Shown here: one piece after another, positions 35,189-52,256 of the stretch
How positions within the stretch are numbered: the stretch's first letter is position 1
Layout: every line of letters begins with the position of its first letter
Origin: Synechococcus sp.
GTDB lineage: Bacteria > Cyanobacteriota > Cyanobacteriia > PCC-6307 > Cyanobiaceae
DNA: 64,000 nucleotides
Reading direction: 5' to 3'
NCBI GenBank assembly: GCA_047285535.1
Contig: JBJBDC010000001.1
Span: forward strand, 416,136 to 480,135
Position numbers and translations under genes: made by a program
The notes under the pieces: generated by a model
Databases searched by the model: none
What the model saw: the letters and a program-made list of their open reading frames with translations, nothing else
Told to the model about the DNA's origin: nothing

Positions 35189-36028
35189 TCTCTCACAATA
35201 ATGATTCTCACAACACATTTCTCAGCAGCTCTTGCCCTCGGGCCTTGGCTACTCGATCACCTTCTGGCCCTATTCCCCTTAGGACTCCCCCCCTACGCCA
35301 CCTCAAAACACAGGGCGCAGTGGCATGAAGGTTTCTCCAGTGAGATACATAATGAGTACATGATCTTTACAGCACTTTTTGCATCCGCGTTAGTTTTTGG
35401 ATACTCCGGCCAAGGGGCTTCGCCCGGCGTCCTGGTTGGTATCAAACCTGGGCGATGAAAGTGTAAGTGCAGCCAGATTGCAGTAAAGACTTTCTTTGCC
35501 GTTGTTTCGTCCATTGAAATACAGCAGCTACTGTCTGCGTTGATCATCAGTACAGCGGCGAAATATAGACCGTTGGAGAATCTGGCTGGAGACTGGATAA
35601 CGAATAGTCAAATTGCATCCGTGGTCTCTCACTACCCTGTTTGTGTAGGGGGAAAATAAATCTTGATCCTCAGGTTTGATCATTGAATCCTGATACTCAG
35701 CTTTGGCCTGTGGTTTTAGTTTCAGCAACAGTTGTTTTTTTGTTCGTGGCCTTATCTGCTTCAAGCACAGGCACTTTTGAATGTGTAGGAGCTTGCAAGT
35801 GCATGATTGAATGCCCTGGAACTTGCCTTTGTTGAAAGTTATATGTGCATAGTTCTGGGCTTTCTGACATCCTGTGAGCAAGCTCAAGGTTCCGACTCAA
35901 CTCGCTGAGTGGGCAGTTTCAGCATTACTGTTATTTAGTAGGAAATAAAACCCCGCTCGTGGCGGGGGTGGTGATTTGTTGTTGATTCAGGGACGAGCGA
36001 CAAGCCTCGAATCAGTTTGATCGGAAAT

Positions 36029-37735
36029 TCAAAATTTAAAAGTAGTTTTGATCAGACCGCCAAAATTGCTGAAGGTGTCGTTTCTACTTTCGTTAAGAGC
36101 GTAAGAGAATTGTCCAAGAGGACGGCTGAGATAGTAAAGCGCAGGGGTGATAGAAATGTTGTCTGTAATTTGAAACATATACCACCATTCCCAGGCGTAG
36201 TTTCCGTCGCCGACCCAGAGGTCTGTCCCATCAGCTTCGATAGAAGTCACGAAAGTGGGTTGACCAACTGCCAGGCCAAGGGTATTGCCCTTCACGAAGG
36301 CATCAGCCCACTGAAGACCTAAATACCATGACTGAGAAGTCGTGGTGTTGTAGGAGGGAAAACGGTCTACATCCAGTTTGGTGGAGTTGAGCCCCCAGCC
36401 GGTGCTGACACTGGGTATCAAGCCGGACTTTTGAGGAGACCAGTATGCGCTCACACCAACAGAATTAGTGGTGCCAAGTTGTGAAAGGCTTGATGCAAAA
36501 GGGGTGCTGTTAGTTAAAGATAAGCTCATGCCATTATCGCCAGCTGCGTAGTTATACGCAGCTGCAATGCCCCACTGATCAGCCGTATAAGCCAGCTGAA
36601 TCGTTCCGCTAGATGCGGAACAGTCAGTGGCAATTCCTCCGCAATTGTCATCAACATCCTGCCCTAGGACATTGGTATTCTCAAGCCAATCATAGCCAGT
36701 AAAGTTATTCGTACTACTCTTGTTTGGATTCGAAACGTTACCGTTAGCGCTGACATAATTTGCGCTAATGCTCCAACCATTGTTCGACCAGCTCAAGCCT
36801 GCACCGGGACCAAGCGCCAGGTTGTAAGCACCCGGCGCGCCAGCGTAGGTAAAGAAATCAAGAACCGTATCTGCCGGATAGACACTGGGCCAAACAGCCA
36901 GCATGTCGTCTTGACGGACCAAACCACCAACGGTTGCAGTGAAATTGTTGCCAATGGGGAACTGGTACCACAAACGGTTCACAGCAACACTGTTAGCACC
37001 TGAAGGCTCTTGGAAGGTAGTCTCCAATGCTGTCAGGCCAGTGGCAACGATTGGGAGTATTCCTCTGAATGTATTGCCTCCGACTTCACCAGCACCTCCA
37101 AAGACAGATTGATCGAAGTTGCCGGCACGCAGCATGGTGCGGAGAAGATCCTTGCCGGTGAAGCTGGTGTCGAGGAAGAGACGAAGGTCGTAGTTGAAAA
37201 CTGTGCCTCCCCAGTTGCCGTTGTAGTTCTTGGTGGCTGCGCTTACGTTGCTCGAGGCTTTTGGAGCCCCAAGCACGAAGCTGGCTTGACCTTTCAGCTT
37301 GGTGGTGGTGGAGAACTGAGTGGCTTCCAGTTCACCAACGCGGGCTTCCAGTCCGTCCACACGGCCCTTGAGGATCGCGAGTTCCTTCTCGAACTCTTTC
37401 ATCAGACGCTTGAGCTCTTCGGTCACTTCAGTAACGCGATCGAGACAGGCATTCAACAGAGCCGCCGCTTCAAAGCGGGTCATCGCTCTGTTGCCGCGGT
37501 AGGTGCCGTTGGGGTATCCAGCGACGCAGCCGTAGCGCTCGATCAGGTTGCTCAGTGCCTGATAGGCCCAATCGGTGGGGTACACATCAGAAAACTGAGC
37601 GATGCTGGTGACTTGCTCACCAGTGGCGGTGTAGTCAGACACACCGTTGATGTTCAGCTCAGTGGCGTTGGCAGCCACAGGGGCCAGAAGGCCCAGTACC
37701 GCTGGAGCCACCAGCAGTTTGCGGAACAGTTTCAT
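36029..37735 (-). CDS. Som-type outer membrane porin (SLH plus beta-barrel)
   Basis: FSDVYPTDWAYQAL SLH domain, coiled coil, QFSTTTKLKG, terminal KTTFKF; terminator near 35950. Confidence 0.95.
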   Translation of the reverse strand: MKLFRKLLVAPAVLGLLAPVAANATELNINGVSDYTATGEQVTSIAQFSDVYPTDWAYQALSNLIERYGCVAGYPNGTYRGNRAMTRFEAAALLNACLDRVTEVTEELKRLMKEFEKELAILKGRVDGLEARVGELEATQFSTTTKLKGQASFVLGAPKASSNVSAATKNYNGNWGGTVFNYDLRLFLDTSFTGKDLLRTMLRAGNFDQSVFGGAGEVGGNTFRGILPIVATGLTALETTFQEPSGANSVAVNRLWYQFPIGNNFTATVGGLVRQDDMLAVWPSVYPADTVLDFFTYAGAPGAYNLALGPGAGLSWSNNGWSISANYVSANGNVSNPNKSSTNNFTGYDWLENTNVLGQDVDDNCGGIATDCSASSGTIQLAYTADQWGIAAAYNYAAGDNGMSLSLTNSTPFASSLSQLGTTNSVGVSAYWSPQKSGLIPSVSTGWGLNSTKLDVDRFPSYNTTTSQSWYLGLQWADAFVKGNTLGLAVGQPTFVTSIEADGTDLWVGDGNYAWEWWYMFQITDNISITPALYYLSRPLGQFSYALNESRNDTFSNFGGLIKTTFKF

Positions 37736-38176
37736 TTTCGGTCCTCACACCAAAAACTTGCGTTACTCAGACGCACTGCTTCGATCCTCAACAGTGCCAA
37801 CGAACCATCCCGTTTACGCATCCTGCGTGCAATCGATTGGGGTCAGTTTCATCTTTGCCGGTTATTTCTCAAAATTAAAGACGAAGTTGATTGGTGCGTA
37901 GCGTTGCCAACCGATCTTTTGCAGGATGATCCTCATCTCGATGCCCTGGTGACACACCCTCTGTTTCTGTCTGAGGTCTTGCCCACTAGTCGTGAGTGGC
38001 GACAGGAGGTAACCATTCCGCATTGATCGTGCAGGGTGGGGGTATCGCGTCGGATTTGGATTAGCTGCTGTGTTGTTGCTGATCAACTCGTCAGCCCTCA
38101 CCCCCGGGCTTCTCTTTAGGCAGGGTTTGAATCAACGACTTAAGAATTCGATGTCTGTCTTTGTAGTAGGCCTCTA

Positions 38177-38272
38177 TTAATAACCACCGAAGCGCAAAGC
38201 AAGCTCTAAGGCTCCATAACCAAATAGGAAAGTGCTTCCAAGCAGTGCTATCTCTTTTTTTGAGCTTGCCAT
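38177..38272 (-). CDS. 31-aa membrane microprotein, paralog of 59375-59470
   Basis: MASSKKEIALLGSTFLFGYGALELALRFGGY*; mostly synonymous differences between copies. Confidence 0.55.
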   Translation of the reverse strand: MASSKKEIALLGSTFLFGYGALELALRFGGY

Positions 38273-38474
38273 AAAGATCAGGGTTGACTCCATCACCAAC
38301 GACCGAAAGAATCCAAAGGAAATCTGAAGGCTCAACGTTTCGAGATTTTTCCATTCACCTGTCCCAAGGACCTCTGTTTACGTAATTTCAGGAAACAGGC
38401 GTAACAGCAACTTTTGGGTCCTGGCGCTCTATTCCTTTATCTTCCCCAAACAAAAATAACTGCTGAAATTTATT

Positions 38475-38702
38475 TCACCCCTCTAGGTGTCCAGTCTGCG
38501 GTGCTCGCCATGAGGCTGCCCAGAGATTGCAGGTTTGGGTGAAGTGTTGCCCCTGCTGGAGAAGTTCCTGCCAGATGTTGCACGCCATCATGATGTGGCA
38601 CTGCTGATTCACGCCATCCCTGACTTGCTGGCAAGCCTCGAAACCACTTGAGCAAGGACAGTTTATGAGTTTCCTCTCGTCCCCATTGCTCCACTCCTCC
38701 AT
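38475..38702 (-). CDS. Diverged MEEWS-family Cys-rich protein, possibly decaying
   Basis: Aligns with 41003-41233; C-terminus shifts frame. Confidence 0.55.
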   Translation of the reverse strand: MEEWSNGDERKLINCPCSSGFEACQQVRDGVNQQCHIMMACNIWQELLQQGQHFTQTCNLWAASWRAPQTGHLEG

Positions 38703-38796
38703 GGCTGCTGGTTAGTAGGCGTGTGTTGACACAAGAGGCGGCAGATGGTTCACCACCAACACAGAAATTGGCTACAGCAGCAGGTTTCTAGGACCC

Positions 38797-38988
38797 TGTG
38801 AGCAAGATCACAGACTTGGGTGATTGCATTAGCGAGTGTGGCTGTGAATTCAGAGAAGCCGATGGAGTCAGGGGCGGGCAGCACAGCCTTGCACTTCGAG
38901 CTTTTCCTCAGAAGATTCAAGTGGTTTGGCTCTAAACAAAGGGAGGAGCCAGCTCTCCTGTTTCGTTCACTTCAAGACACCGATCACC
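38797..38988 (+). promoter_or_regulatory. Perfect CRP-type box (38797-38812) plus conserved precursor leader
   Basis: Homologous to 41335-41525, 45454-45641 and 48766-48952. Confidence 0.75.
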
Positions 38989-39108
38989 ATGACGGAACAC
39001 ACGGCACAACTGATGGATGAATCTCAAAGGGATTCAGAGCTAATTGATCAAGAGATCTCTTTTCCAGTGCTTTGTGCAGTCTCTGCGGGGTTCAATGGAT
39101 ATCCATGA
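38989..39108 (+). pseudogene. Precursor peptide with leader and truncated core
   Basis: MTEHTAQLMDESQRDSELIDQEISFPVLCAVSAG-FNGYP*. Confidence 0.55.
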
Positions 39109-39418
39109 AGAGAATTTCTGTATTAAGTATTGAATCGTTTAAAGCCGTTGATGGGTTAGAACATAAGAATGAAGTTATTGCCTAGTCACTACAAGCGATT
39201 GATTCCTCAAGAGGGCATTCAGGGTTGCTGGATGGTGAAATCAAACGGGAGTCCTTGAGTGAGGAATCAGTTGACTGGGTATGAGATTGTCGTACAGCTA
39301 CTGCTTAGGCTACTCCTATACCCATGCCACTGAAATAAGCAATCAAGACATTCATTGATATCAGTGAGTAACAACCCTGCTCCCAATTTGGTTTTATGAT
39401 TACCTCTTGCTGCCATGA

Positions 39419-39919
39419 TTAGGGGACGTCCCCTTCATTGTTGGATTCGTAATAGTCTTGGTGAGAGTTATCAGAAAAATGATGGCTTTTCTGGTATAAC
39501 GTGTATAGGTTTAGAAGATTAGATCTTCTCTCTTCGTGTTCGTTGCTAACCATCAGTTGATCATACTGAGTAATTACATTTTCGTCTAAACTTTCTTCTG
39601 CCCAGGTCATTAGACTCCAGTATTCGTCATACCCTCCTACAAGATCTTGCAGTTGGTCAATGTAGAAATCTGCTCGCTCTCCATCGACAGAATATTCAGA
39701 GCTTAGCTCTGAATATTCTGTCGATAACTCTCCAATCAGTTCGTTTTGTCGAAGCAGCTCTTTCTCTAATTGGTTGAACTCTTGCAGTATCTGTTCCCGT
39801 GAACCAGCCCATTCAATCTGAGTCTTATCGAAATTGATATGCTCAGCCTCGCTCCCGTTATAGAAGGCTTTGGGATTGATTGTAAGTCCGTTGTACCTAT
39901 CCATTGTTGTCATTAGCAA
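39419..39919 (-). CDS. Acidic coiled-coil hypothetical protein
   Basis: 166-aa ORF. Confidence 0.45.
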   Translation of the reverse strand: MLMTTMDRYNGLTINPKAFYNGSEAEHINFDKTQIEWAGSREQILQEFNQLEKELLRQNELIGELSTEYSELSSEYSVDGERADFYIDQLQDLVGGYDEYWSLMTWAEESLDENVITQYDQLMVSNEHEERRSNLLNLYTLYQKSHHFSDNSHQDYYESNNEGDVP

Positions 39920-40930
39920 AGTTCGTTAGAATCGCTAAGATCCAAAAGTTTTCCTACTTTGGTTCGATAGTGTCTTAGGTGGTAGCCATTCAGCTAAGAG
40001 TTCTGACGCCCTTGATGCATAGAGTTGTCTGAAAGTAATCATACTCAATGACAATCTAGTGCTTTCAATAAACAGCTTGTAGACTAATGAATTAATTATT
40101 GGTGAGAAAGGCCTAATCGCATGCTCATTGACTCCTCACACTATGACTGAAGTGTGACATTAACGCGATGGCAATAATGAAGGAGTTGTCATTTTTATGT
40201 TGGTCATTATCATTAGATTCTGCATGGACATGCCGTATTTAAGGTTTAATTTGGTTTGTGTCCGCCAAGACGACCTGTCGCCGTTGTGGCGTAGTCTTAG
40301 AGGCATTGAAACTTCCAGTAGCAAAAGACTATCAATACTAAAGTCTTCGTCTGAAATTGAGTGTGTTGAATTCATTTTCTATCTGTTCTACAGGACACCT
40401 TTTTACTGCAGACTGATTTTGTGAAGCCTACCTTCCAAAACAACTAACGAGACTGCGTCCTTGCTAACGGCTGAAGGGATTTAACTTCTTACTTCTCCTG
40501 ATGTCCCAGGTCACAATGTTGATAGAGCAGCTGATGTTGCATCAGTTTCCCTGCTCGCAGAGGTATCGCCTCCCAAGCTCCCTTTGAACCAGTAATTAGC
40601 CTTCGGTAGCTTCGTTCTATCGATTTGGTGATTCGTGCTCTCGCTTCAGGTGAGCATCAGGCCAGCAATGGGACCGAGTTCATGTTGAACTACGAGTACG
40701 CTTATCGATCTCTAAGTCATCCGATTCTGATGCAGCTATGTTTGCTGTATCGAGAAAATGAACAGCCTAAAAAAATTTGTCAACGGCAGCAATTCTTAGC
40801 GCGCTCCAACTGAAAGGAGGGAAAAGTCAATCAACCTGGTGGCTAAGGATTGGCTGACCACCGCGAGCGTGCTTTACAAAGCGTCATCATGGCGATAAAA
40901 TAAACAAACGATTTTGAACACGGGATCGTG

Positions 40931-40992
40931 AACTCCTCTGGGAAGAGGTTCTCATCACATCAGAAGGTCTCTGTGGAAGGAGATCTTTTTTT
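40931..40992 (+). ncRNA. Second Yfr1/Yfr10-like sRNA candidate (related copy at 30919-30978)
   Basis: AACTCCTCTGGGAAGAGGTT hairpin, CTCATCACAT linker, GGTCTCT..GGAGATC-T-run terminator. Confidence 0.45.
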
Positions 40993-41002
40993 ATGCCTTG
41001 GC

Positions 41003-41233
41003 TCAACCCATTTCGGGTGCCCAGCCTGCGGTGCTTTGCCATGTGGGTGCCCAGAGATTGCAGGTTTTGGTGAGGTGTTGACCCTGCTGGAGAAGTTGCT
41101 GCCTGATGTTGCACCCCACCAGGGTATGGCAATGCTTGTCCACGCCATGCCTGAAGTGCTGGCAAGCCACGCAAACACTCGAGCAACGGCAGTTTTTGAG
41201 TTCCCTCTCGTCCACATAGCTCCACTCCTCCAT
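41003..41233 (-). CDS. Cys-rich small protein (MEEWS family), intact copy
   Basis: CRCSSVCVACQHF...C...C...CNLW. Confidence 0.75.
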   Translation of the reverse strand: MEEWSYVDERELKNCRCSSVCVACQHFRHGVDKHCHTLVGCNIRQQLLQQGQHLTKTCNLWAPTWQSTAGWAPEMG

Positions 41234-41245
41234 GATCAGCTCTCA

Positions 41246-41259
41246 AGTACAGATGTACT
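41246..41259. promoter_or_regulatory. Cyanobacterial LexA (SOS) box
   Basis: AGTAC-AGAT-GTACT, 12 nt upstream of the ATG; one-mismatch copy at 31230-31243. Confidence 0.75.
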
Positions 41260-41525
41260 AGCTCGGGAGAGGGCTGGTCGTCAACAAGAACAGCTGAAGC
41301 TGTCCACCATCGCTTAGTTGGTTGCATTGGACTCTGTAAGCAAGATCACAGACCTGGGTGATGGCCATCAGCGAGCGAGGCGGTGAGTTCAGAGAAGCTG
41401 AAGGAGTCAGGGGGGCAGCCCAGCGCTGAACTCTCAGCTCTTCCTCAGAAGATTCAAGCGATTTGGATCTACAAAAAGGGAGGAGCCATCCCTTCTGGTT
41501 CGTTCACTTCAAGACACCGATCACC

Positions 41526-41720
41526 ATGACTGACATCAACTCAAAAGCGATGGATGAATCACCCGTGGATTCAGAACAGATGGATCAGGAAATCAAGCCG
41601 GAAGACCTGCATGCGATCTCTGGTGGCTGGGGAAGGAGTTGCTATTACAGCTACAGCAACAACCGTTCTGCTAGCTACACCGCTGCATCAAGTGATGACG
41701 GTAGAAACGGTAGAAACTGA
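41526..41720 (+). CDS. Double-glycine precursor peptide, Ser/Tyr-rich core
   Basis: DQEIKPEDLHAISGG-WGRSCYYSYSNNRSASY...; box at 41335-41350; terminator near 41742. Confidence 0.8.
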   Translation: MTDINSKAMDESPVDSEQMDQEIKPEDLHAISGGWGRSCYYSYSNNRSASYTAASSDDGRNGRN

Positions 41721-41829
41721 CATCTCTGAGTGACCTGACCACCCCGCTACGAGCGGGGTTGTTGATTAAAGCCACTGAGCTCCAACAGATTGTGCTGGCC
41801 AAGTAATCAATACCTTCACGATGCTTAGT

Positions 41830-42261
41830 TTAAAAAGGGATCACGATGGACCATCTATTACGTCTGAACCACCAACGATTGCTGCTCACCTCCCGCTTTG
41901 GAACACTTCCAGAGTTGAATCCGTTCGGATCATCAGCTTGGGGGCTAATTTTCGTCGCTCCGTCCAATGGAATCTCGTACCCCACGTAATGGTCACCTTC
42001 TTTCTGACATGACCTCGAAGGATATTGCGAATACGTCGTCCATATGCCAGTTCTCTTCACGGTGTAATTTTCAGCTGATGATGCCCATTGTTGACAAGCC
42101 CTATACGCAGCTTCTGGAGACTCATAGCGGTTCAAACCCTGGACAAAACCGATAAGATTCGGGATTTGGGTAATGACAAGAGCGGCGAGAAGTAACTGGG
42201 TGATTTGAATAGATCTCATCAGCAATATGCAGTCATTAGAAATGGGAGTTACTAAATCCAT
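41830..42261 (-). CDS. Hypothetical membrane-anchored protein
   Basis: 143-aa ORF with N-terminal hydrophobic segment. Confidence 0.5.
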   Translation of the reverse strand: MDLVTPISNDCILLMRSIQITQLLLAALVITQIPNLIGFVQGLNRYESPEAAYRACQQWASSAENYTVKRTGIWTTYSQYPSRSCQKEGDHYVGYEIPLDGATKISPQADDPNGFNSGSVPKREVSSNRWWFRRNRWSIVIPF

Positions 42262-43159
42262 TACAATGTCAATGAATCCATCGTAAAGACAAAAAGTGTT
42301 TGATTGCTGCCACCATTGATGCGGTAAATCGATGCGTGCTAGATATGATCATTGGCTAATGCGCGTTTCGCTTAGCTTTGCAGAGGGATTAACCTCATTG
42401 CGATAGACAATCTAAGCAAAACATGTTGGTCCAGCTCCTGCCCCAGCGATCCATCTCAATACTTTGAAATCACAGTTGGCAATTCACCCTGAGTCCTATG
42501 AAGGAGTGATGCATGATGATCATCCAAATGTTCATCCATAAGCTTCAACTCAGACAGCTGTTAAGCTCTCGCCGATTCAATCAGGATATCTAAAAAGATC
42601 ACTATAAAGTTTTTAGTCGCTTTTATGAGGATAAAACGGAAGGCCGACTCGTACACTGTTCCCGCTTTAGCGTCAAAATATAATGCAATCAATACCTATG
42701 AATGAACTGTTGAAATAGCGCGAAATTCATATCGTTATAAAGGCGATCCTCAATTCCAGCGCCAAAGGTTAAGAGCAAGGATCGTAATCGCATAACTTTT
42801 AACATGTATATCAATCTTAAGCCAAAAAACATAGAGAGGTATTCTGAGCTAAAAATTAATAAGATGTTGCGTCAATGGCCCTTTCTAATCACAAGGGTTG
42901 ATTGTTTTTAATTCCAGCTGGAACTGGAGATGTGGGCTGTTAAGTCCTGGTAAAAGTAAAGAAGCTACCAGCACGAATTGGCAATCAGATACTGATTTTC
43001 AAAACCATATTGAGGCTTGTAATCGATGGTTCTAGAATAAAGATTATTGTTTTCCAATCGCGTCACATTTGCTGATGCCCAAGGTCATGAGACTTTCTTT
43101 TTCTATCAAATGTTGTTAATACAGGGTCACCCCAAAACAGAAGCCACACTTTTGAAGTC

Positions 43160-43483
43160 ATGAACAACGCTAGTCCTAGACTCTCAATCCAAATTTGGCA
43201 AGGAGTTCAAGGGACCGTCTTGAGTGTGATTCCTGCTGCTTTTCTTCTTGCAGGTCCACCTCCTCCCCCAATGCTTCCTATTGAAATTGAAAAGCCAGTT
43301 CCAAAAGAGCATCCTGGCTTGAAGGTGGAAAATTTCCAATTTGAAATTGATCAGAAAAATTTTAATTGTTCTGCAGGAGAACTGAATTCAGGTAACAAAG
43401 CACCATATGCCTACAGCCCATCAAACGAGTCTTTTGCTGGCGAACTGCAAATTCATGCAGCTCGATGCAAGACACGTTTTTAG
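43160..43483 (+). CDS. Hypothetical protein
   Basis: 107-aa ATG ORF with hydrophobic stretch and poly-Pro. Confidence 0.5.
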   Translation: MNNASPRLSIQIWQGVQGTVLSVIPAAFLLAGPPPPPMLPIEIEKPVPKEHPGLKVENFQFEIDQKNFNCSAGELNSGNKAPYAYSPSNESFAGELQIHAARCKTRF

Positions 43484-43716
43484 ACGAGAGTAGATGAAAA
43501 CATAATCCGCACGTCACACATCACAACAATCTGAGCTATCAGTCCATGAGCTTTCTAGGTCTGAACGTAGGGACTCATAATGTCAACTCTTTACTTGTTA
43601 ATTAACTACCAGATAAGTTGATCGAGGGTACTCTCATCAACATGAACTCCAGAATTGCTTAAGCCAAATGGATAAGCGACACTGAGACCCACAATGATGG
43701 AAATGCAACGAGCAGG

Positions 43717-44401
43717 ATGATCAGTATTCTCGTCGTTATGACCCCGCACGGATAACTCGGAGAGACGGGCTACACCACTGGCTTCTGGTTCGAAGAATTT
43801 GCTGCTCTATATTTCATATTCAATGAAGCAGGAGCAACGATCCCATTCGCATCCCCGCAAGGAGAGTTGCCGACAATCGAACCCAAGAGCAACAGTTTGG
43901 ACACGGAGACAGAAACCATTTGACGGTTCAAGGCTGATTGTTTAGCCGCTCGATCATTCGCCACTAGCGCAAGGCCGTACTTCCTTTCAGCTCATTACTT
44001 TGACGCAGTTTTTAATCCCCGAGGACTCGCTCCTCTATAAGCCTTTGTAGACAGCGAATCATCGATTCAACTGATTGAAGATTTCTGGGCAGATTGCAAG
44101 TCTATCTTCGCTGTATGCCATGCTCCAATCGTTTTCATCATCGCTAAAGATCAGAATGGTGAGCCTATTGTCAAAGGACGAGAAGTGACTGGATTCACCA
44201 ATTCTGAAGCAGAGGCTATAGGCCTCAGCAAAATTGTGCCTCGGCTTCCAGAGCCAACAATGATTGCTAATTAATGGTGCCAAATATTCGAGAGGTAGCG
44301 ACTGGCAGTCTTATACATGCCAAGACGGCAATCTGATTACCGGTCAGAACCCGCGATCATTTGAAGCAGTGGCGAAACTCATACTTCGAGCTCTTGCTTG
44401 A
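43717..44401 (+). pseudogene. DJ-1/PfpI (type 1 glutamine amidotransferase-like) pseudogene
   Basis: TGFWFEEFA, FASPQG, AVCHAP, VTGFTNSE, LITGQNP; several stops. Confidence 0.85.
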
Positions 44402-44503
44402 AATCAGTCTAAAAATGAGCGGGATCCAATGGTCCTCACTGATACCTGACTCCATAGATTCTCTGGTTTCACAAGCCAGCCGATGCCGTCAATCAAGCAG
44501 CTC

Positions 44504-44519
44504 TGTGATTTGGCTCACA
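44504..44519 (-). promoter_or_regulatory. Perfect CRP-type box in an orphan cassette head
   Basis: TGTGA-TTTGGC-TCACA with spacer AACGCTAAAACTGCC on the minus strand. Confidence 0.6.
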
Positions 44520-44632
44520 GGATCCCAGACATCAGGCACCATTAAGCGGAGGCAGTTTTAGCGTTACCATGAAAGAAATAGCAAGCAACAAACATTCCCA
44601 ACCTATCGTTAGGACTTTAAGTAATAGAAATA

Positions 44633-44926
44633 TCAGCTCTTTCCAGTAATGGCCCCATTAAAGGGATCTTCTTCATCTTTGAAACCATCAATATAACTGG
44701 TTTTGTTCGATCCATCAGAGTCACAGGAGCCACAGGAGTCAAGATTCTGATCGACCGTTTCAAGTTCTTTGAGAATCTTTTTAGCTCCTTTATAGACCAA
44801 ATAACCAATACCTCCAAGAACGAGGGCTGGCAAAATTGGGACAGCACCACCGTTATATGACGCAAGGTCTTCAAGACTTAACTCTTGATCAACTGAGTCT
44901 TGGTTGAGGGTTGTTGTGTCAATCAT
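44633..44926 (-). CDS. Double-glycine bacteriocin-like precursor
   Basis: DQELSLEDLASYNGG-AVPILPALVLGGIGYLVYKGAKK...CGSC; box at 45016-45031. Confidence 0.75.
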   Translation of the reverse strand: MIDTTTLNQDSVDQELSLEDLASYNGGAVPILPALVLGGIGYLVYKGAKKILKELETVDQNLDSCGSCDSDGSNKTSYIDGFKDEEDPFNGAITGKS

Positions 44927-45264
44927 GGTTTTGAATGTAGTAGAAGTGTTTGACTTCGGCATACACAACATCGCTGAGGTCAATCCGAAATGCGATGATC
45001 CAAATCACTAATCATAGTGATATTGATCACAACATCATCAAAGAAACAATGTCTTGCCCAAAGCTGTACTCTTCTCCTGTGTATTCGAGTTCAAAAGGTA
45101 TAACCTATGAAGAATATTGCCTCAGTTAATGCATCCTAAAGTCGATTAGATTCAATCGATCTACTCAAGGCCTGGTTCGTATTGTTGAAAGAACAAATAC
45201 ATGGGTCAAACACGAATGCAGATGGTTCGAATTATCATTTATCTTGCTTAAAGAGCAGTGTCAA

Positions 45265-45453
45265 TTAACCTGAGTTGTTATTGCTACCAGAGTTCGAGGA
45301 GTAGCTCGCGGATTTGCTACTACTGTAACTGGAATAACAGGACCGACCAAAACCACCGCTAATCCTCTTCAAAGTCTCAGGCTTAATTTCCTCGTCAAGC
45401 TGCGCTGAATCTTCAGGTGTCTCTTCTAGAGATTGTGGTTTGGGTTCGGTCAT
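45265..45453 (-). CDS. Double-glycine precursor peptide, paralog of 41526-41720
   Basis: DEEIKPETLKRISGG-FGRSCYSSYSSSKSASY. Confidence 0.8.
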   Translation of the reverse strand: MTEPKPQSLEETPEDSAQLDEEIKPETLKRISGGFGRSCYSSYSSSKSASYSSNSGSNNNSG

Positions 45454-46043
45454 GGTGTTTGGTGTCTTGAAGTGTTGGAACCAAAAGAGATGGCCACTCC
45501 CTCTTTAGACCCAAATGGCCTTAGTCTTCTGAGGAAACGATGAGAAATCAGCTCTTTGCTGTACTTCTGAATCCAACAGACTGAACGGATGTGACGGCCA
45601 TACGTGATTCGTGATGATGTTGCTCTGTGATTTTGAATACAGAGGACAGAATCAGTACAATCGAGAATTTCCGCATTGTCGCTCCGTTAACAGACAATAG
45701 GGTGTGCTATGAATAACCACAGAGCTTTCAATAGGACCCAGTGGTGTAACGAGCAAACAGTCCAGGCTTGATCACAGATCGTTGTTAGTTAGGGGAAGAT
45801 AGGTTTAATCGAGAGATTCGACGCTGTCCAGAACACGGCAAATTCCACTTCGACAACGAATGACATCACATCGTATGATCTTAGTAGTACTTGTCTGACT
45901 ATCAGATAAAGCAAGGTTTGTGGTGACTTCAATTACTCAGGCCAACATAAAATACCGATACTTTGATGATGATTCAGCTGTGCTAAGGGGATAAAAATGG
46001 ATTAGTGAAACTCATTGAACCGCAAATAGCCAATACTTGATCT

Positions 46044-47660
46044 CTAACAAGGATTAGGGTTGGTCTCCATAAATGATGCTAACCAAGGGAATCTCTTCTG
46101 TCGTTCTGATAGGGAACAGAGGGTATGCCAGATAAGGCGATTAGATCCAGGAAGTCCATTGTCAATAATAACATCATCATCAACTACCAAAAGGAATGAA
46201 CTTGAAGAGTCATTGTTTAACAACATACTCCATTCAAAAATACCTTTTGGGAACAGAACACTACCGGAGTTTTGGCGAACTTTGATTGATAGTGATTCAA
46301 AGAAGGATGTAAAGTTTTTATTTTCATCGAAAACCTCATCAGCGTGAATAATCCCAATATCCAAGTCACCTTGACAGCTCCAGAAATCTTCAATAGCAGA
46401 AAGCTCCTCTTTAATCTCTCGTTCGATAACCGACTTGGGATCGTTAAGGTAACCAAAGCCACATGGTATATTCATTTCTAAAATCACACCAGAATCAATT
46501 AATTTTGAGTCTTCATTCTTTAGTATTAGATCTATTCCACAGCTAGGGAACCCTAATGTAGCAAGCATGGACTCAATAGTCTTCACATCGTCCTCATGAA
46601 TCATGGATGACTCCACAAGATGTAATGTTGATGCACTTATCGCTGGAGAAAGAGGAATCGATTTTCCCTTCTCGGGAATACACACGTTCAAATCCGTTAA
46701 GGAATAAACCTCATAGCCAATCGTCCGCTTTAGAAGTTTTTCTCTTAAATGTGTATTAGTCTCGATTTCGTTCATTAGTTGTGGATATTTATCGTGAATC
46801 AGCTTGCCTAGGCTTGAACAACCGTCACCAGTAACTGATTTAGGTTTCCCCCTCCATACTGAGTGGAGCTTACCATTACTAAAATAAACTCGATATTCAC
46901 AACCTTTTACTTCCTCCTCAATAATATATTGATCCATATGACCACCCAAGTTTCTGAGTGCGTGTGTCAATTGCTCTGATGTCTGAATACCAATAAAGAC
47001 CTTTTCAGAATTCGAAGATGTAGGCGACTTGACGACAATTGGCCCCTTCAAGGTTGAGGCTACCTCGTGAGCCATATCATATCCCCAAACTGTTGCTCCA
47101 TCCGCTACAGGTAATCCGAAAGACTTAAGATACGATCTACAAACCGATTTATTTGTGCCAACTAACGAAGAAATACAATTGGATGATGGTCTCATATTCA
47201 TTATAAATAATCTTGCATATCGACCAAAACCCATCATCGTATAAGGAAATGAGCCTAGAAATCCACACGTAACAGGGATTTTATTTTTCTTGCAAAAGTA
47301 GTAATGGATTCCAAAGGTGGCTTCAAAGAGTTCCTTATTGGCCTGAGCCTGATTGACTTTGATAACCTCTGCAGGTGTCAGGCACTCATTAACAATTAAA
47401 TGACAAAGTGTATCTATGTCTAGAAAGTGTGAAAGCTTGCAATAAGCATGTGTGATGCCATCAAAAGAATCACCGAAATGAAGGGAAGATACAAGATTGT
47501 TGTCCGAAAAAATAAGCCATTTGTTATTCAGCTCATCCTCTACACACCCCTTTATCCAAAAATGAGCAATCTGTGATCCTGGAACAAAAGATCTCGATTT
47601 GTGGTAACAACTTTTGATGACTCTACAACGAGGTTGGGAATCCATATTGTTTATTGGCAA
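46044..47660 (-). CDS. ATP-grasp ligase (cyanophycin synthetase/GshAB-like ATP-grasp domain)
   Basis: NKSVCRSYLKSFGLPVADG, PIVVKS, IIEEEVKGCEYRV, VTGDG, CGIDLI, ILEMN; no Mur-ligase domain. Confidence 0.8.
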   Translation of the reverse strand: MPINNMDSQPRCRVIKSCYHKSRSFVPGSQIAHFWIKGCVEDELNNKWLIFSDNNLVSSLHFGDSFDGITHAYCKLSHFLDIDTLCHLIVNECLTPAEVIKVNQAQANKELFEATFGIHYYFCKKNKIPVTCGFLGSFPYTMMGFGRYARLFIMNMRPSSNCISSLVGTNKSVCRSYLKSFGLPVADGATVWGYDMAHEVASTLKGPIVVKSPTSSNSEKVFIGIQTSEQLTHALRNLGGHMDQYIIEEEVKGCEYRVYFSNGKLHSVWRGKPKSVTGDGCSSLGKLIHDKYPQLMNEIETNTHLREKLLKRTIGYEVYSLTDLNVCIPEKGKSIPLSPAISASTLHLVESSMIHEDDVKTIESMLATLGFPSCGIDLILKNEDSKLIDSGVILEMNIPCGFGYLNDPKSVIEREIKEELSAIEDFWSCQGDLDIGIIHADEVFDENKNFTSFFESLSIKVRQNSGSVLFPKGIFEWSMLLNNDSSSSFLLVVDDDVIIDNGLPGSNRLIWHTLCSLSERQKRFPWLASFMETNPNPC

Positions 47661-47671
47661 AAGGAATAAAA

Positions 47672-47925
47672 TTAGCTAGGGCAGCACATCAAGCCTGTAT
47701 CACTTGAAGCTGTGCAATTATCGTTACCTTTTAGTTTAGAATCTTTTGATGGCTCAAACTTGTTCGTTTGAAACTGTATTCATGAGCCTTGAAACTCTTT
47801 TCGATACAATTCTTGCTAGTTGCAGACCGCTTAAATTGACCTCCAGAAGCACTATAATCAATTTCTTTTAACAGCTCATTATTGGCTTCGCTGTGAGCTT
47901 CTTCTCTGCTGTCAAAAGTGGACAT
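47672..47925 (-). pseudogene. Precursor peptide paralog with 1-nt frameshift near 47778
   Basis: ...SASGG...SFKAHE / QFQTNKFEPSKDSKLKGNDNCTASSDTGLMCCPS*; aligns with 48490-48765. Confidence 0.8.
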
Positions 47926-47967
47926 GACGACTAGACTGTATCAACTAATTAGATTTCTAGCCAATCA

Positions 47968-48357
47968 ATGTTGCAAGCCAACAGAAACTTAACAACTTTT
48001 CAATCATCTATGCCATTCTCAAACTTTCCAGAAATAGATTGTAGCTTGATGCTTTTAAAATTCACTGATGATAGTTGTGGATTATGCTATAAAATGGCTC
48101 ATTTTGACAGTGTAGTGGCCAATAAAATGAGCATCGATATGGTGGAAATTAAAACCAGCTCTAAGGAGTTTGAGCATTATCGTGAGTTGTTTTATTCTTT
48201 TTTCCAAGATTCAGAAGTTGCCGGCTGGCCAACATATATTTTAGTTCGCATCGATGGAGAAAAAGGTATGCCCTTAGGTGTAATCAAGGGAGCATTGCCT
48301 AAGAAAGAGTTTCGAGAAGGTCTAGCCTCCTTTCTTTCCGAGAATCAACTTGAATAA
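47968..48357 (+). CDS. Thioredoxin-like protein (CGLC)
   Basis: LLKFTDDSCGLC, GWPTY cis-Pro loop, IKGALPKKEF. Confidence 0.8.
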   Translation: MLQANRNLTTFQSSMPFSNFPEIDCSLMLLKFTDDSCGLCYKMAHFDSVVANKMSIDMVEIKTSSKEFEHYRELFYSFFQDSEVAGWPTYILVRIDGEKGMPLGVIKGALPKKEFREGLASFLSENQLE

Positions 48358-48418
48358 CAAGCCATTACCATAGACACCTTGTAAACCATAAATGGCTTAG
48401 CTGGCTGATAACAGCTAT

Positions 48419-48455
48419 ATTGACCCCCATCGATTGATAGTTGATGGGGATCAAT
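48419..48455. terminator. Hairpin between the convergent thioredoxin and precursor genes
   Basis: ATTGACCCCCATCGA...TTGATGGGGATCAAT inverted repeat. Confidence 0.55.
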
Positions 48456-48489
48456 AGAGACTCTTATATTAATTCGATTAAAGTTAAAA

Positions 48490-48765
48490 TTATCCAGGGC
48501 AGCCCATCACTCCAGTATCACTTGTCGCAGTGCAATTATCACCTGCTAGTTCGCGGATTTTAGAAGGATCAAACTTATCGATTTGAAGCTCTAATTCCCT
48601 AGTTTTAAAACTTCTAGCACGAAAAGACTGGCTCGGAGCCATAGGTTTGAAATTGCCTCCTGATAAGCTAGAAAGCTCACTTAAGGTTTCCGAATTAATT
48701 TCTTTGTCTATTTGCTCTGAAGCCTCTGGAGATTGATCAAAGGCTTGTGAGTTGATTTTAGTCAT
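48490..48765 (-). CDS. Double-glycine precursor peptide ending DNCTATSDTGVMGCPG
   Basis: IDKEINSETLSELSSLSGG leader; perfect CRP-type box at 48937-48952. Confidence 0.8.
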   Translation of the reverse strand: MTKINSQAFDQSPEASEQIDKEINSETLSELSSLSGGNFKPMAPSQSFRARSFKTRELELQIDKFDPSKIRELAGDNCTATSDTGVMGCPG

Positions 48766-49617
48766 GGTGTTCAGTATGTGAAGTTAAAAAATCAGAAGGG
48801 ATGGCTGCTACCCGTTGCGGACACAATTGGTTGAGTCTGTTTCGGAAGTGCTGAGAATCAGCGCTGTCCTTTCCCCCTGACTCCCTCAGTTTGTCTGGAT
48901 TCACTCGTCCTACCGATGATCTCTGTCACGTTGGACTGTGATCCTGCTCACAGGCGCTATTACAGTGGCCTCTACCATGTTTAGGGAGGCTTGTTGTGCG
49001 CAAGTTATATGCAGCGGTGTATGCACTGAATCACTCACAAAGGTATCTAAGGTCCCACAGTGACTAGATAGATAGATTTCAAACCTCAATTCCACAATCG
49101 TTGAAAATACAACTCCTCAATCTCAACAATAAATGTTCAATAATTTTCGGCCTTGTAAGCCATAAATAATACTTAGGCAGTCTATGCTCTTTGTTCACGT
49201 GCAATCCACACATTCAAATATGAGCACATCAAATCCGGCCCTGAGAGACCAGTTCATCAATAAAATTAGAAAATTAGGTTAAATTGAATAACGCAAAAAG
49301 CGCGTAAATACGTATTAAATGAGACTCGAACAATGGTCAGATAGGTCAATATATGTTGGTCTGACAACTTAATAATTGCCTTGAATTGCTAACTTGTTTT
49401 AATCCTGAAGCGTTGAGACCCTGGCTCTTCATGCTTGTCGCATAAGCACAATATGTCTTGTTTTATCACAGGATAGACACATGAATCACAGCTCAAAATC
49501 TCTTCAATCAGATCATCCAAAATGTTGAGTTTATCAACCCTGTGTTTCGATCCTCAAACCACAAGCAAATGGCCACGGTACAACGAGTTACAAACTTATC
49601 TTGGCGGTCGGTATGGT

Positions 49618-50322
49618 TCAAATATTTGACTCGACGAGTCCATGGGTCAAGGCATAAACAGCTGCTTGAGTTCTATCTCTAACCCCTAACTTCTGCATCG
49701 CTGTACTCACATGGCTCTTGACTGTCTCTACTGAAAGAAAAAGGCTTTGCGCAATCTCGTTATTCTTCATTCCTTGAATGATACAACGAATGACTTCTAG
49801 CTCCCTTTCTGACAATGGGTCAACAAGCGTGGGCAATGGCTTTACCTTTGCTGTAGCAACTTCGCGTACAGCTTTTGGGAAGTAAATTCCACCACTAGTG
49901 GTAACAGTTAAGGCTTGAATGAAATCACCTGAGCCAGTACCAATAGAAGAATTAAACATCACTCCATCAGCTCCTGCTTCCATTGCTTCTTGAACAACCT
50001 CTGGCGTCTCCCTATTAAGAAAAATCATGGCCTTAAGTTCTGACGATTTTTTTTTGGCAGTCTCTACGAGCCTAATTCCATAGCCCGTTTCTAATTCTTC
50101 GCTGGTAATCAAGATATGTGGGTTGCTTTCTTGTTGAATTTGTAGCGCTTCATCTTCAGTTGTTGCTCCGCCTACGAGTGATTGCAAAATAGGAGTGCAA
50201 AGGCAAAGCGCGGAGAGCGTCAAGCGGTTTTTTGAACAAACTAATACCCTTTTGTGTGCCAATAATTTCTGACAGACAGCTGAGGCCTTCTTCATTGATT
50301 GTTCAGATGGATTGATCCTCAC
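49618..50322 (-). CDS. NarL/LuxR-family response regulator (start uncertain)
   Basis: LSERELEV...GMKNNEIAQSLFLSVETVKSHVS...KLGVRDRTQAAVYA; atypical receiver. Confidence 0.88.
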   Translation of the reverse strand: MRINPSEQSMKKASAVCQKLLAHKRVLVCSKNRLTLSALCLCTPILQSLVGGATTEDEALQIQQESNPHILITSEELETGYGIRLVETAKKKSSELKAMIFLNRETPEVVQEAMEAGADGVMFNSSIGTGSGDFIQALTVTTSGGIYFPKAVREVATAKVKPLPTLVDPLSERELEVIRCIIQGMKNNEIAQSLFLSVETVKSHVSTAMQKLGVRDRTQAAVYALTHGLVESNI

Positions 50323-51324
50323 GTCTTGATGTTTGTGATTTAACAATCGTAGCTCACATCCTATCTTCAGCAATTTTCCACCGAATAACGAGAGATCACA
50401 ACGTTCAAACCTTGGCAAAGTTTTGATTGGATGCTCACTTGGTGCCAACGTTGCTGGTTTCTATTGATATTGAGAATGACTAAAAATCCGAGAATTCATA
50501 ATGGTGGATTGAGTAATGTTTCAACTCTGCACGTTCGTCGCTACTGAGTCTTGATTTGTTCGATTGCTTTTGCTCTTAGCCCTTGTCCCATCCTTAAGGA
50601 AGGTCTCATGGCGCCCCCTTCGGCCTTAGCCCTCTAAGGACTGCGACCAGTATCAGCTGCATGAAAACCTCGCCTTACCCAGCATCAAATCCAAATGATC
50701 AAGACACAACTCAGCTGCTGCTTACGCGATCGGTGGCCGCCAACGACAAAGCCGATGCATAAGTCAGCCAAATGTGTTATATATAACGTACGCCAAAGAA
50801 CCCAGTAAAGGGACCACTGAGCGCGAACCATAAAGTTGAATCAATGAATCAAACAACACTCATTGCCAAAAGAGGTTTGCCTGCTTCAAGCGACAGTAAG
50901 CAAAAGCAACCCAAGCAAGAACCCGAACTCATCACTTGGGAGGAATTGATCGGCAGACAATAAATGATGCTCACCTAGTTGATCAGATTCCTTTTGAACA
51001 GTCACTGAGAAGGTGGCTTGAGGGTTGAGAGCTGATGAAGAACAGTCTTTATCCCATTGATGTTTTGCTCTATCAACACTATTGATGCGCTTTGAAGGAA
51101 TGGATGATCCATCGTTTCTCATGGCTTGAACTGCCGGCCGACAACACCTGCAGTGGCACCTCACCAGGACTGCCACACGCTGAACAGCCACATGGCTGAC
51201 CACCAAAGACGTTGTTCTGAGATGGATTGAAGGCGGCAGTCATATCCAGCTGCATGAAGAAGGGATTGAGTTACCTGCTGACTGCAAAAATTCGGCACTC
51301 TCAAGTCGTACTGGCAAAGGAGCC

Positions 51325-51879
51325 ATGTCCAAAAGAATCATCGCGGTGTTATTGCTGATGGTCTCATCAACGGCACCTGCAATCGCTCATCCTCGCCACC
51401 ATCGTGGTGCTTACGACCGTCACCATGATGAGGTCCACAACTACCACTATCGTCGCCCTTCAGAGAGACGAGTTGTCAAAACATACAGGCGTCCTCTCGA
51501 GAGGGACGTGGTTACAACCTACAGACTTCCCACAAAAAAGAGGTATCAAAGAATTTACACGCGCCCTTATGAAAGAGATGTCGTGACTAGCTACAGGCTT
51601 CCTGTTGAACAAAGGTCGAACAGGATTTACAAGCATCCTGTTCAACGCGAAGTCATCAAAAGCTACAGAAGGCCTGAAGACAATCGTTATCGGCACGAGC
51701 GCTATGGGACTCAAGTCAGCAGAGCTGATACCAATAGTTGTGTTGAGGGAAGTGTCATTGGTGGACTTTTAGGTGCTGGTCTCGGCGCGGTGTTATCCAG
51801 AGGAGAAGGACGTTGGATTGGAGTACCTCTTGGTGGTGCAGCAGGTGCCCTAGTGGGGTGCCAGGTTGATGGAGGTTAA
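51325..51879 (+). CDS. Secreted glycine-zipper protein with 12-aa tandem repeats
   Basis: Signal peptide, YxxPxER-type repeats, GSVIGGLLGAGLGA...GAAGALVG. Confidence 0.8.
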   Translation: MSKRIIAVLLLMVSSTAPAIAHPRHHRGAYDRHHDEVHNYHYRRPSERRVVKTYRRPLERDVVTTYRLPTKKRYQRIYTRPYERDVVTSYRLPVEQRSNRIYKHPVQREVIKSYRRPEDNRYRHERYGTQVSRADTNSCVEGSVIGGLLGAGLGAVLSRGEGRWIGVPLGGAAGALVGCQVDGG

Positions 51880-52256
51880 TGAACTTCAGGAAGGCATGGT
51901 TACCTTCTTGGACTTCAGCCATAAATAGGCCTTAGCTGGAGTCAGCGGAGAGATTCCAATGACTCCTAACTCAACATCTCCTCGTAACGGCCATCAGTTC
52001 TGACATGGAATGGTTCACGCTCCTTCTGCTCAGGATTGAGCAACATGGCCAGCCTAAAAACTAACGAGTTCCTCAAAGTTCTAACCATGAAGCCGGTCGC
52101 GCCAGGGGAGCACAAATGTCCTCTCATCCACGTCTATTAGGGCAAGGTCAAGCTTTTCCAAAAAGCCCATCGTCCATGTGAAACCACGAAACGGAGACAA
52201 TCGACCAAGTCTCAAGTCAACACTTCAGAGTTTCAGCAGGCAATCGAAATGAACCC

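Follow-up and report, generated by a model that had tools for sequence, protein, structure and literature searches.

RimK and PGM1 (pheganomycin) belong to the ATP-grasp enzymes and join amino acids or peptides to a product of the ribosome. To our knowledge, the ATP-grasp enzymes that modify ribosomal peptides belong to the RimK/MdnC lineage, and the graspetides (microviridins), with their omega-ester and omega-amide bonds, are made by MdnB/MdnC-type ligases. The function of RimK and PGM1 is also touched on in parts of a phylogenomic study of the graspetides (PMC8939145). The window analysed here, a 64,000-nucleotide stretch of the genome of a Synechococcus sp. (contig JBJBDC010000001.1, positions 416,136 to 480,135), contains a locus at 46044–48952 that encodes an ATP-grasp ligase resembling cyanophycin synthetase (CphA), together with precursor peptides that carry a Gly-Gly (GG) leader and a C-terminal core with two Cys residues. 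We consider it likely that this locus belongs to a rare family of ribosomal-peptide modification systems, that it was acquired by horizontal transfer, and that it works by the mechanism proposed below. The locus is composed of the following features.

46044–47645, minus strand: ATP-grasp ligase, 533 residues from an ATG start; an alternative TTG start at 47660 gives 538 residues.
47672–47925, minus strand: precursor B, a frameshifted paralog of precursor A, with the leader open reading frame (ORF) at 47731–47925 and the core in another frame, ending at 47672.
47968–48357, plus strand: CGLC protein, 129 residues, tentatively thioredoxin-like, located between the precursor genes on the opposite strand.
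48490–48765, minus strand: precursor A, an intact 91-residue ORF with a GG leader, a 40-residue spacer and the 14-residue C-terminal core CTATSDTGVMGCPG.
48766–48958, minus strand: 5' region of precursor A, which together with the leader-coding part forms a cassette common to other GG-peptide genes of the genome.

The ligase family and its paired core peptide

In all six homologous loci with usable upstream DNA (L006, L007, L009, L010, L011, and L012), the ligase is preceded, on its own strand, by a short ORF that ends in C-x-x-[ST]-x-D-[ST]-G-M-M-G-C-x-G, with two copies in L012. Loci L008 and L013, which are cut within the upstream gene, and the fragment L017 were left out of this count. Across 114 kb of homologous loci the core motif has seven matches, all at the expected place. 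The first-pass annotation of this DNA had named a failure of ligase homologs to co-occur with such precursors as the observation that would speak against its proposal; the two genes occur together in each of the six informative loci. The gene pairing is established across phyla, and the peptide–ligase pair is the only constant among the neighbouring genes.

The pairing extends to a distant clade of three loci (L014, L015, and L016), of which two are distinct, as L015 and L016 have the same layout. Their ligases are about 25% identical to that of the window, and the GG-leader peptide ends in R-C-G-K-x-T-C-x-x-T-x-D-V-T-C-P, with its stop codon at or overlapping the ligase start. The C-x-x-T-x-D spacing is the same in the main and distant clades, and the part following it is shorter in the distant clade. 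Within the main clade the core is near-invariant and reads [DE]-[ST]-C-x-[EA]-T-x-D-[TS]-G-M-M-G-C-x-G.

A profile built from eight precursors retrieved 50 precursor clusters at E ≤10 from 4253 candidates; the core motif of precursor A is common to the 49 others. All 50 contain the motif, with C0, D5, G7, M9, G10, and C11 invariant, M8 in 48 of 50, Thr (47/50) or Ser (3/50) at position 3, and Thr (39/50) or Ser (11/50) at position 6, a count of conservation that is partly circular as the retrieving profile was itself built on the motif. In the six frames of the 3.03-Mb host genome, C..[ST].D[ST]G.M.C occurs exactly twice, both times at the locus, against about 0.005 copies expected from composition. 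By inspection, the leaders are of GG type in most precursors, and five (P0237, P0268, P0269, P0270, and P0272) carry a Sec-like signal peptide. The N-terminal part thus varies freely, and the enzyme therefore presumably recognises the core itself.

The ligase is composed of an N domain, an ATP-grasp G domain and a short C-terminal domain, with about 110 residues behind the G domain. The stand-alone ATP-grasp gene of 538 residues noted in the first-pass annotation is indeed present, as the minus-strand ORF at 46044–47660 read from TTG (533 residues from ATG), and the database representative P0001 starts at the ATG (47645). Pfam gave nothing significant for the ligase, including no graspetide-ligase match. 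The NCBIfam cyanophycin synthetase model TIGR02068 aligns ligase residues 98–418 with model positions 144–464 of 862 (E 7.5e-30) at 103.6 bits versus a cut-off of 850, and NF010623 scores 97.4 versus 877. Weaker NCBIfam matches are to GshAB and D-Ala-D-Ala ligases, and a graspetide maturase model is absent from the nine NCBIfam matches at E ≤0.01. In profile searches of the PDB, CphA1 comes out on top (7lgm, E 4.6e-36; 7lgn; 7lg5), followed by CphA2 (8fxh, 7ta5) and GshAB. PGM1 (3wvq, E 0.0079) and a RimK-type chain (3vpd, E 0.0045) are remote matches, and no MdnB or MdnC chain is found among the 55 matches. An AlphaFold2 (AF2) model of the ligase, built from 27 family sequences, has a predicted local distance difference test score (pLDDT) of 92.8, and its top Foldseek matches are all CphA1 or CphA2 (E 7e-27 to 2e-17; 7wae, E 7.3e-27). 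The alignment spans about 600 columns and thus includes both the N domain and the region that follows the G domain. NCBIfam, the PDB search and Foldseek agree with the earlier assignment of the enzyme as CphA-like rather than MvdC/D-like. At the level of sequence and predicted fold, they confirm that the ligase descends from cyanophycin synthetase, with loss of the Mur-ligase M domain.

The V-T-G-D-G segment of the ligase (residues 271–275) aligns with V-[AT]-G-D-G of CphA. The feature is thus shared with CphA, in agreement with the CphA-like character annotated earlier. K166, K206, E243, R252, D372, and N392 are invariant and E390 is at least 90% conserved among the 27 family sequences; we take these Lys, Glu, Asp and E-x-N residues to bind ATP and Mg, as in Ddl and CphA. 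In the family segment G-G-N-S-x-G-V, S213 (at least 90% conserved) is aligned with H267 of SuCphA1 in D-G-N-H-G-R-G. Passages of PMC9262961 describe H267 as needed for G-domain activity and the H267A exchange as inactivating. The active site of the ligase has thus diverged from CphA, because the equivalent of H267 is a conserved Ser. In addition, reading the sequence of the N domain revealed no HxxEH motif. In the host genome (99.99% complete), nothing scores above the CphA cut-off, and Peptidase_S51 (cyanophycinase) has no match. A complex prediction for the ligase with residues 52–91 of precursor A, ATP and Mg gave ipSAE values of 0.02 and 0.02.

In a word-based search of 5.8 billion proteins, 8000 candidates were scored and 75 of them matched at E ≤0.001; the family accounts for no more than the first 10, and the remaining matches are mostly 870-residue cyanophycin synthetases. 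In a full HMMER scan of 1.84 billion representatives, 30 proteins score at least 258 bits. Scores then drop to 191 bits, and matches below this value are confined to the G domain. From 33 family members and 88 others, a tree of 121 G-domain sequences was calculated, the 88 being every second of the 176 non-family sequences with a coverage of at least 80% of hidden Markov model positions 130–400. All 33 family members fall into one clade with a support of 0.995. A pattern scan of 185,579 species genomes yielded three confirmed ligase loci, two in Gemmatimonadaceae and one in Bryobacteraceae, all of them in metagenome-assembled genomes, and a metagenome scan yielded nine further loci. Among 401 sampled genomes of the phylum of L006, with at most three candidates scored per genome, only the centre genome matched. 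The ESM Atlas contains only generic ATP-grasp clusters annotated as 'hypothetical' or 'putative cyanophycin synthetase', which serve as leads only. As judged from its sequences, the ligase family is discrete and very rare. No description of it was found in the literature searched, in which most subscription journals and the supplements of graspetide papers were not covered; in the same search no paper contained both 'graspetide' and 'cyanophycin', and the core strings occurred in no relevant text. The system is thus rare and, as far as this literature shows, apparently undescribed, which is in line with the earlier suggestion of a possibly undescribed family.

Precursors, neighbours and genome setting of the locus

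Precursor A is the sole intact precursor at the locus in this strain. Its leader ends in ..LSSLSGG and its C-terminus is DNCTATSDTGVMGCPG. Leader residues 1–37 share 51–54% identity with three other GG-peptide genes of the genome, and the DNA of the 5' region and the leader part (window 48685–48958) matches three other loci of the same genome (G000) at 72–73% identity. Because leader and 5' region resemble other GG loci of the host, a foreign core seems to be placed behind a native leader cassette, and with such a native-type leader, export by one of the five C39 transporters encoded elsewhere in the genome would suit. The cassette of about 270 nucleotides (nt), composed of the 5' region and the leader-coding part (48685–48958, 41335–41760), is common to the GG-peptide genes of the genome at 72–94% identity, and may represent a shared promoter/untranslated-region unit permitting the plug-in of new cores.

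The first-pass annotation had described two paralogous GG-leader precursors. This description stands for precursor A, which is intact and has an SGG leader, and not for precursor B, which is frameshifted and does not form one ORF. Three-frame translation showed that the ATG and the SGG leader of B share a frame which ends in a stop at 47731 after 64 residues, and that the segment KFEPSK...DNCTASSDTGLMCCPS sits in a different frame; the earlier reading had spliced the two together. Likewise, the gap between B and the ligase, given as 11 nt, is 26 nt with the ATG start. A DNA alignment of A and B places a single-base gap in B at about 47778. Moreover, a position that is Gly in all 50 family precursors is Cys in B. 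The extra base that would restore the frame is found behind 47777 in run X4 (a different study, organism B, depth 3.1), where the evidence for an in-frame B is a single low-depth contig. Run X2, the likely source run (depth 202), and the marine metagenome run X8 (depth 9.4) are both without it. As X4 has the base while X2 and X8 do not, B appears to be a recent polymorphic break and not an assembly slip. The region is present at high identity in independent runs, and no break is reported there for either the ligase or precursor A.

The CGLC protein was annotated as a thioredoxin lying between the two precursors. Its position is as described, but it is on the opposite strand and its thioredoxin match is weak: Pfam Thioredoxin_2 (E 1.9e-4, 22.2 bits versus a cut-off of 27) and Thioredoxin (E 0.0099) are both below their cut-offs. 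The single-sequence AF2 model of the protein has a pLDDT of 44.5, and phmmer against the PDB found nothing significant. In L008, L010, L011, L012, and L013, a MauE protein with a C-terminal CxxC domain is located directly upstream of the ligase. This MauE-domain membrane protein (E 2e-8 to 3e-10) lies between precursor and ligase in L010, L011, and L012, and in L008 and L013 the upstream sequence shows only its end. A proposed role of MauE is to aid disulfide formation in methylamine dehydrogenase, as stated in a passage of PMC7794033 that cites earlier work, and the main text of the graspetide phylogenomics study mentions neither thioredoxin nor MauE (term search; PMC8939145). The recurring thiol-redox partner fits a role for the two invariant Cys of the core.

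Other neighbours differ between loci. The L011 cluster continues with a cyclic-nucleotide-binding (cNMP-binding) protein, HlyD, a C39 ATP-binding cassette (ABC) exporter and a second ABC protein. In the host genome there are five C39 matches, all outside the window and four of them in open frames of 721–746 residues; the nearest (C1:514820) is about 35 kb past the window end. L006 and L007 encode a divergent Cys-rich DUF6171 protein, and Pfam searches with the N-terminal parts of these two proteins found nothing. In L015 (4166–9662) and L016, a variant precursor ending in ..RCGKQTCAATVDVTCP is located between a divergent LanM (class II lanthipeptide synthetase) and the ATP-grasp gene, with a Cupin_8 protein downstream; the peptide from this precursor may carry two kinds of modification. 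Three family members, L010 (7974–11012), P0008, and P0076, have the ligase in fusion with a GT41 glycosyltransferase. This O-GlcNAc-transferase-like fusion hints at glycosylation of a conserved core Thr/Ser in some lineages.

The host genome is a single 3.03-Mb contig with a guanine–cytosine (GC) content of 0.506 and 13 matches to phycobilisome proteins, which mark the host as a small cyanobacterium. The GC content of the 46–50 kb stretch is 0.39–0.41 versus 0.506 genome-wide. At the DNA level, window 46044–48952 has no match in any of 30 congeners, and the ligase is present in none of 400 other genomes of the host's family. Horizontal transfer is the likely origin of the locus in this genome, as one part of the joint explanation given above.

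The locus forms part of an island of at least five GG-leader peptide genes: 41526–41720 (plus), 44633–44971 (minus), 45265–45453 (minus), 47731–47925, and 48490–48765. Two peptides of the island have Ser/Tyr-rich cores (GRSCY.SYS...), with near-identical paralogs at C1:89158–89403 and 274213–274458 (91–95% identity), and one has a hydrophobic core with a faint match to class IIb bacteriocins (lactobin A/cerein 7B; E 0.0037). Window 40887–41327 contains long overlapping ORFs on both strands (146 and 129 residues) over a repeat that recurs within the genome and in many congeners at 77–89% identity. A LuxR-type response regulator (49618–50448, minus) is located upstream of precursor A on the same strand; the match to its receiver domain is weak (24.6 bits versus a cut-off of 30.2), and the regulator is probably outside the imported module, because paralogs or orthologs occur in many congeners. 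Further on, 51325–51879 (plus) encodes a 184-residue protein with His/Arg/Tyr-rich tandem repeats (..YRRP..R.VV..) and a C-terminal glycine-zipper 2TM domain (E 1.2e-8). Scans for promoters and terminators over 45800–49700 gave background levels (9 and 4 matches, versus 10.3 and 2.3 in shuffled sequence), and Rfam found no match over 36000–52000.

Proposed chemistry and alternative explanations

We infer the following course of events, from the action of the enzyme on the peptide and its choice of carboxylate and nucleophile to the disulfide and the export route. The precursor would combine an N-terminal export signal (GG leader here and in most relatives, Sec-type in some) with the conserved C-terminal core. 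The cytoplasmic ligase would bind this core and use ATP to phosphorylate one of its carboxylates. If the system works in this way, there is a little under an even chance that the activated group is the side chain of the invariant Asp5, which is favoured because it is the only invariant carboxylate and because the C-x-x-T-x-D spacing is the sole feature kept in both clades. The acyl phosphate would be captured by a nucleophile. With an adjacent Thr/Ser hydroxyl or Cys thiol this would give a small ring; the other candidate is an external amine. The two invariant Cys would be handled by the thiol-redox partner, the CGLC protein here and MauE/CxxC membrane proteins elsewhere, and probably form a 12-residue disulfide loop. 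The leader would be removed in trans by one of the C39 ABC exporters of the genome. A Thr/Ser–Asp ester within the disulfide ring may be the product, as one candidate among several fitting chemistries. Two other linkages were considered and ruled out: a lasso-like N-terminal isopeptide, as the distance from the GG site to Asp varies widely, and a Lys–Asp lactam as the common reaction, as Lys is found at +1 in only 26 of 50 precursors.

Several observations weigh against this proposal. The action of the ligase on the peptide is predicted from the pairing of their genes. B, the precursor gene next to the ligase on its upstream side, carries the frameshift both in this genome and in marine metagenome X8, and precursor A is split from the ligase by a gene of opposite orientation. 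Among the public sequence runs listed with the region, none is on record as RNA. The CGLC protein is an orphan, with only itself found among 5.8 billion proteins, and BLASTP detected no similarity between it and the MauE fusion of L011 or the DUF6171 protein of L007. The CxxC domains of the MauE fusions give thioredoxin- or glutaredoxin-like Pfam matches only at E 0.04–0.22. No C39 peptidase match is located within the window, as the statement in the first-pass annotation that it holds no exporter had it. A Thr3–Asp5 ring would be smaller than any graspetide ring we know of. Finally, according to passages of PMC9262961, activation by the CphA G domain takes place at the alpha-carboxylate that ends the chain, and by homology the ligase would not act on a side chain.

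This last point belongs to the main rival explanation, a serious if unlikely one, in which the ligase, as do the CphA G domain and RimK, would phosphorylate the alpha-carboxylate at the end of the peptide (...C-P-G-COOH) and add one or more free amino acids or dipeptides, so that the peptide is a primer for template-free elongation. The nearest relatives in sequence and fold are CphA1 and CphA2, whose G domain acts on the chain C-terminus. Moreover, the core is always at the extreme C-terminus, with two or three residues behind its last Cys, and 47 of 50 precursors end in Gly. A gene for a secreted-looking M14 zinc carboxypeptidase (L006, 2979–4703), starting 37 nt after the ligase stop, would also suit C-terminal extension, but it is found in only one of 12 loci. 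Also against such an extension, the distance from Asp to the C-terminus varies (eight or nine residues in the main clade, four in the distant clade), whereas the C-x-x-T-x-D spacing is constant, and H267 of SuCphA1, needed for G-domain activity, is a conserved Ser here. A related hybrid of ribosomal peptide and template-free ligation, which we regard as distinctly unlikely, would have a CphA descendant recruited to use the gene-encoded peptide as acceptor or primer. In this hybrid the Cys...Asp...Met-Met...Cys core would be a secreted peptide binding a soft metal such as copper, from picocyanobacteria to soil Acidobacteriota and Gemmatimonadota, the metal part being suggested by core composition only.

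We give little credence to the view that the system is real elsewhere and a decaying remnant in this genome, where no product is made. The frameshift of B and its Cys at the invariant Gly position would fit decay, as would the window without an exporter and the absence of the ligase from 400 related genomes. Against this, the ligase ORF is unbroken and retains every conserved catalytic residue, and precursor A is intact with a leader and 5' cassette of host type. Neither gene has a reported break across the independent high-identity runs, and B itself is in frame in one related strain (X4). It is very improbable that the peptide is an unmodified secreted Cys/Met-rich product, bacteriocin-like or metal-binding, while the ATP-grasp enzyme serves another end, for example the synthesis of a small molecule or immunity. 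Modification is a prediction from the genes here, and the island at 41.5–48.8 kb contains at least five GG-leader peptide genes, among which peptides without modifying enzymes are common. However, the adjacency of peptide and ligase is kept across phyla while all other neighbours change, some precursor stops are at or overlapping the ligase start, and the fusion partner of the ligase in three family members, GT41, is a type of enzyme that modifies proteins or peptides. A role of the ligase in cyanophycin metabolism, as a CphA2-like polymerase of beta-Asp-Arg, is practically negligible. Its fold and domain order are like those of CphA2 (7ta5, 8fxi), and the hidden Markov model alignment to 8fxh extends into the region behind the G domain. 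Nevertheless, the score of 103.6 bits is far from the NCBIfam cut-off of 850, the genome is without a CphA match above cut-off and without a Peptidase_S51 match, the H267 equivalent is Ser, the N domain has no HxxEH motif, and the family forms its own clade.

Comparison with known systems

Like the C39-exported GG-leader peptides, precursor A has a leader that ends in GG and resembles the other GG peptides of the genome, with cleavage predicted here, and a C39 exporter with HlyD is present in the L011 cluster. The system differs from them in that the exporter is unlinked here and that some family members have Sec-type signal peptides. With CphA1 and CphA2, which are its best sequence and fold matches, the ligase shares the order of N and G domains, the V-x-G-D-G loop and the ATP-grasp residues. 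In contrast to them, it has no Mur-ligase M domain, scores far below the family cut-off, carries Ser in place of H267, and lacks HxxEH. It is paired with a gene-encoded peptide in a host without cyanophycin genes. RimK and PGM1 are precedents for an ATP-grasp enzyme acting on a carboxylate of a ribosomally made chain, but they are only remote relatives of the ligase.

The graspetides offer a parallel in logic. In both, a ribosomal precursor adjoins an ATP-grasp ligase, the core combines hydroxyl residues with an acidic residue (T/S3, D5, and T/S6 in all 50 precursors), and the likely logic is capture of an acyl phosphate by a nucleophile. The ligase here is of CphA lineage and not of the MdnB/MdnC (RimK-like) type. 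As read from its genes, the system extends peptide modification by ATP-grasp enzymes to a new form with a candidate chemistry. It is small, consisting of one peptide and one enzyme, and through a CphA-lineage ligase acting with a peptide, the biosynthesis of peptide natural products would gain another enzyme scaffold and probably another reaction. Whereas graspetide cores are diverse, the core here contains two invariant Cys and a Met-Met pair and is almost invariant over three phyla. Such constancy is unusual for secreted modified peptides and suggests a conserved target or ligand, not an arms-race toxin.

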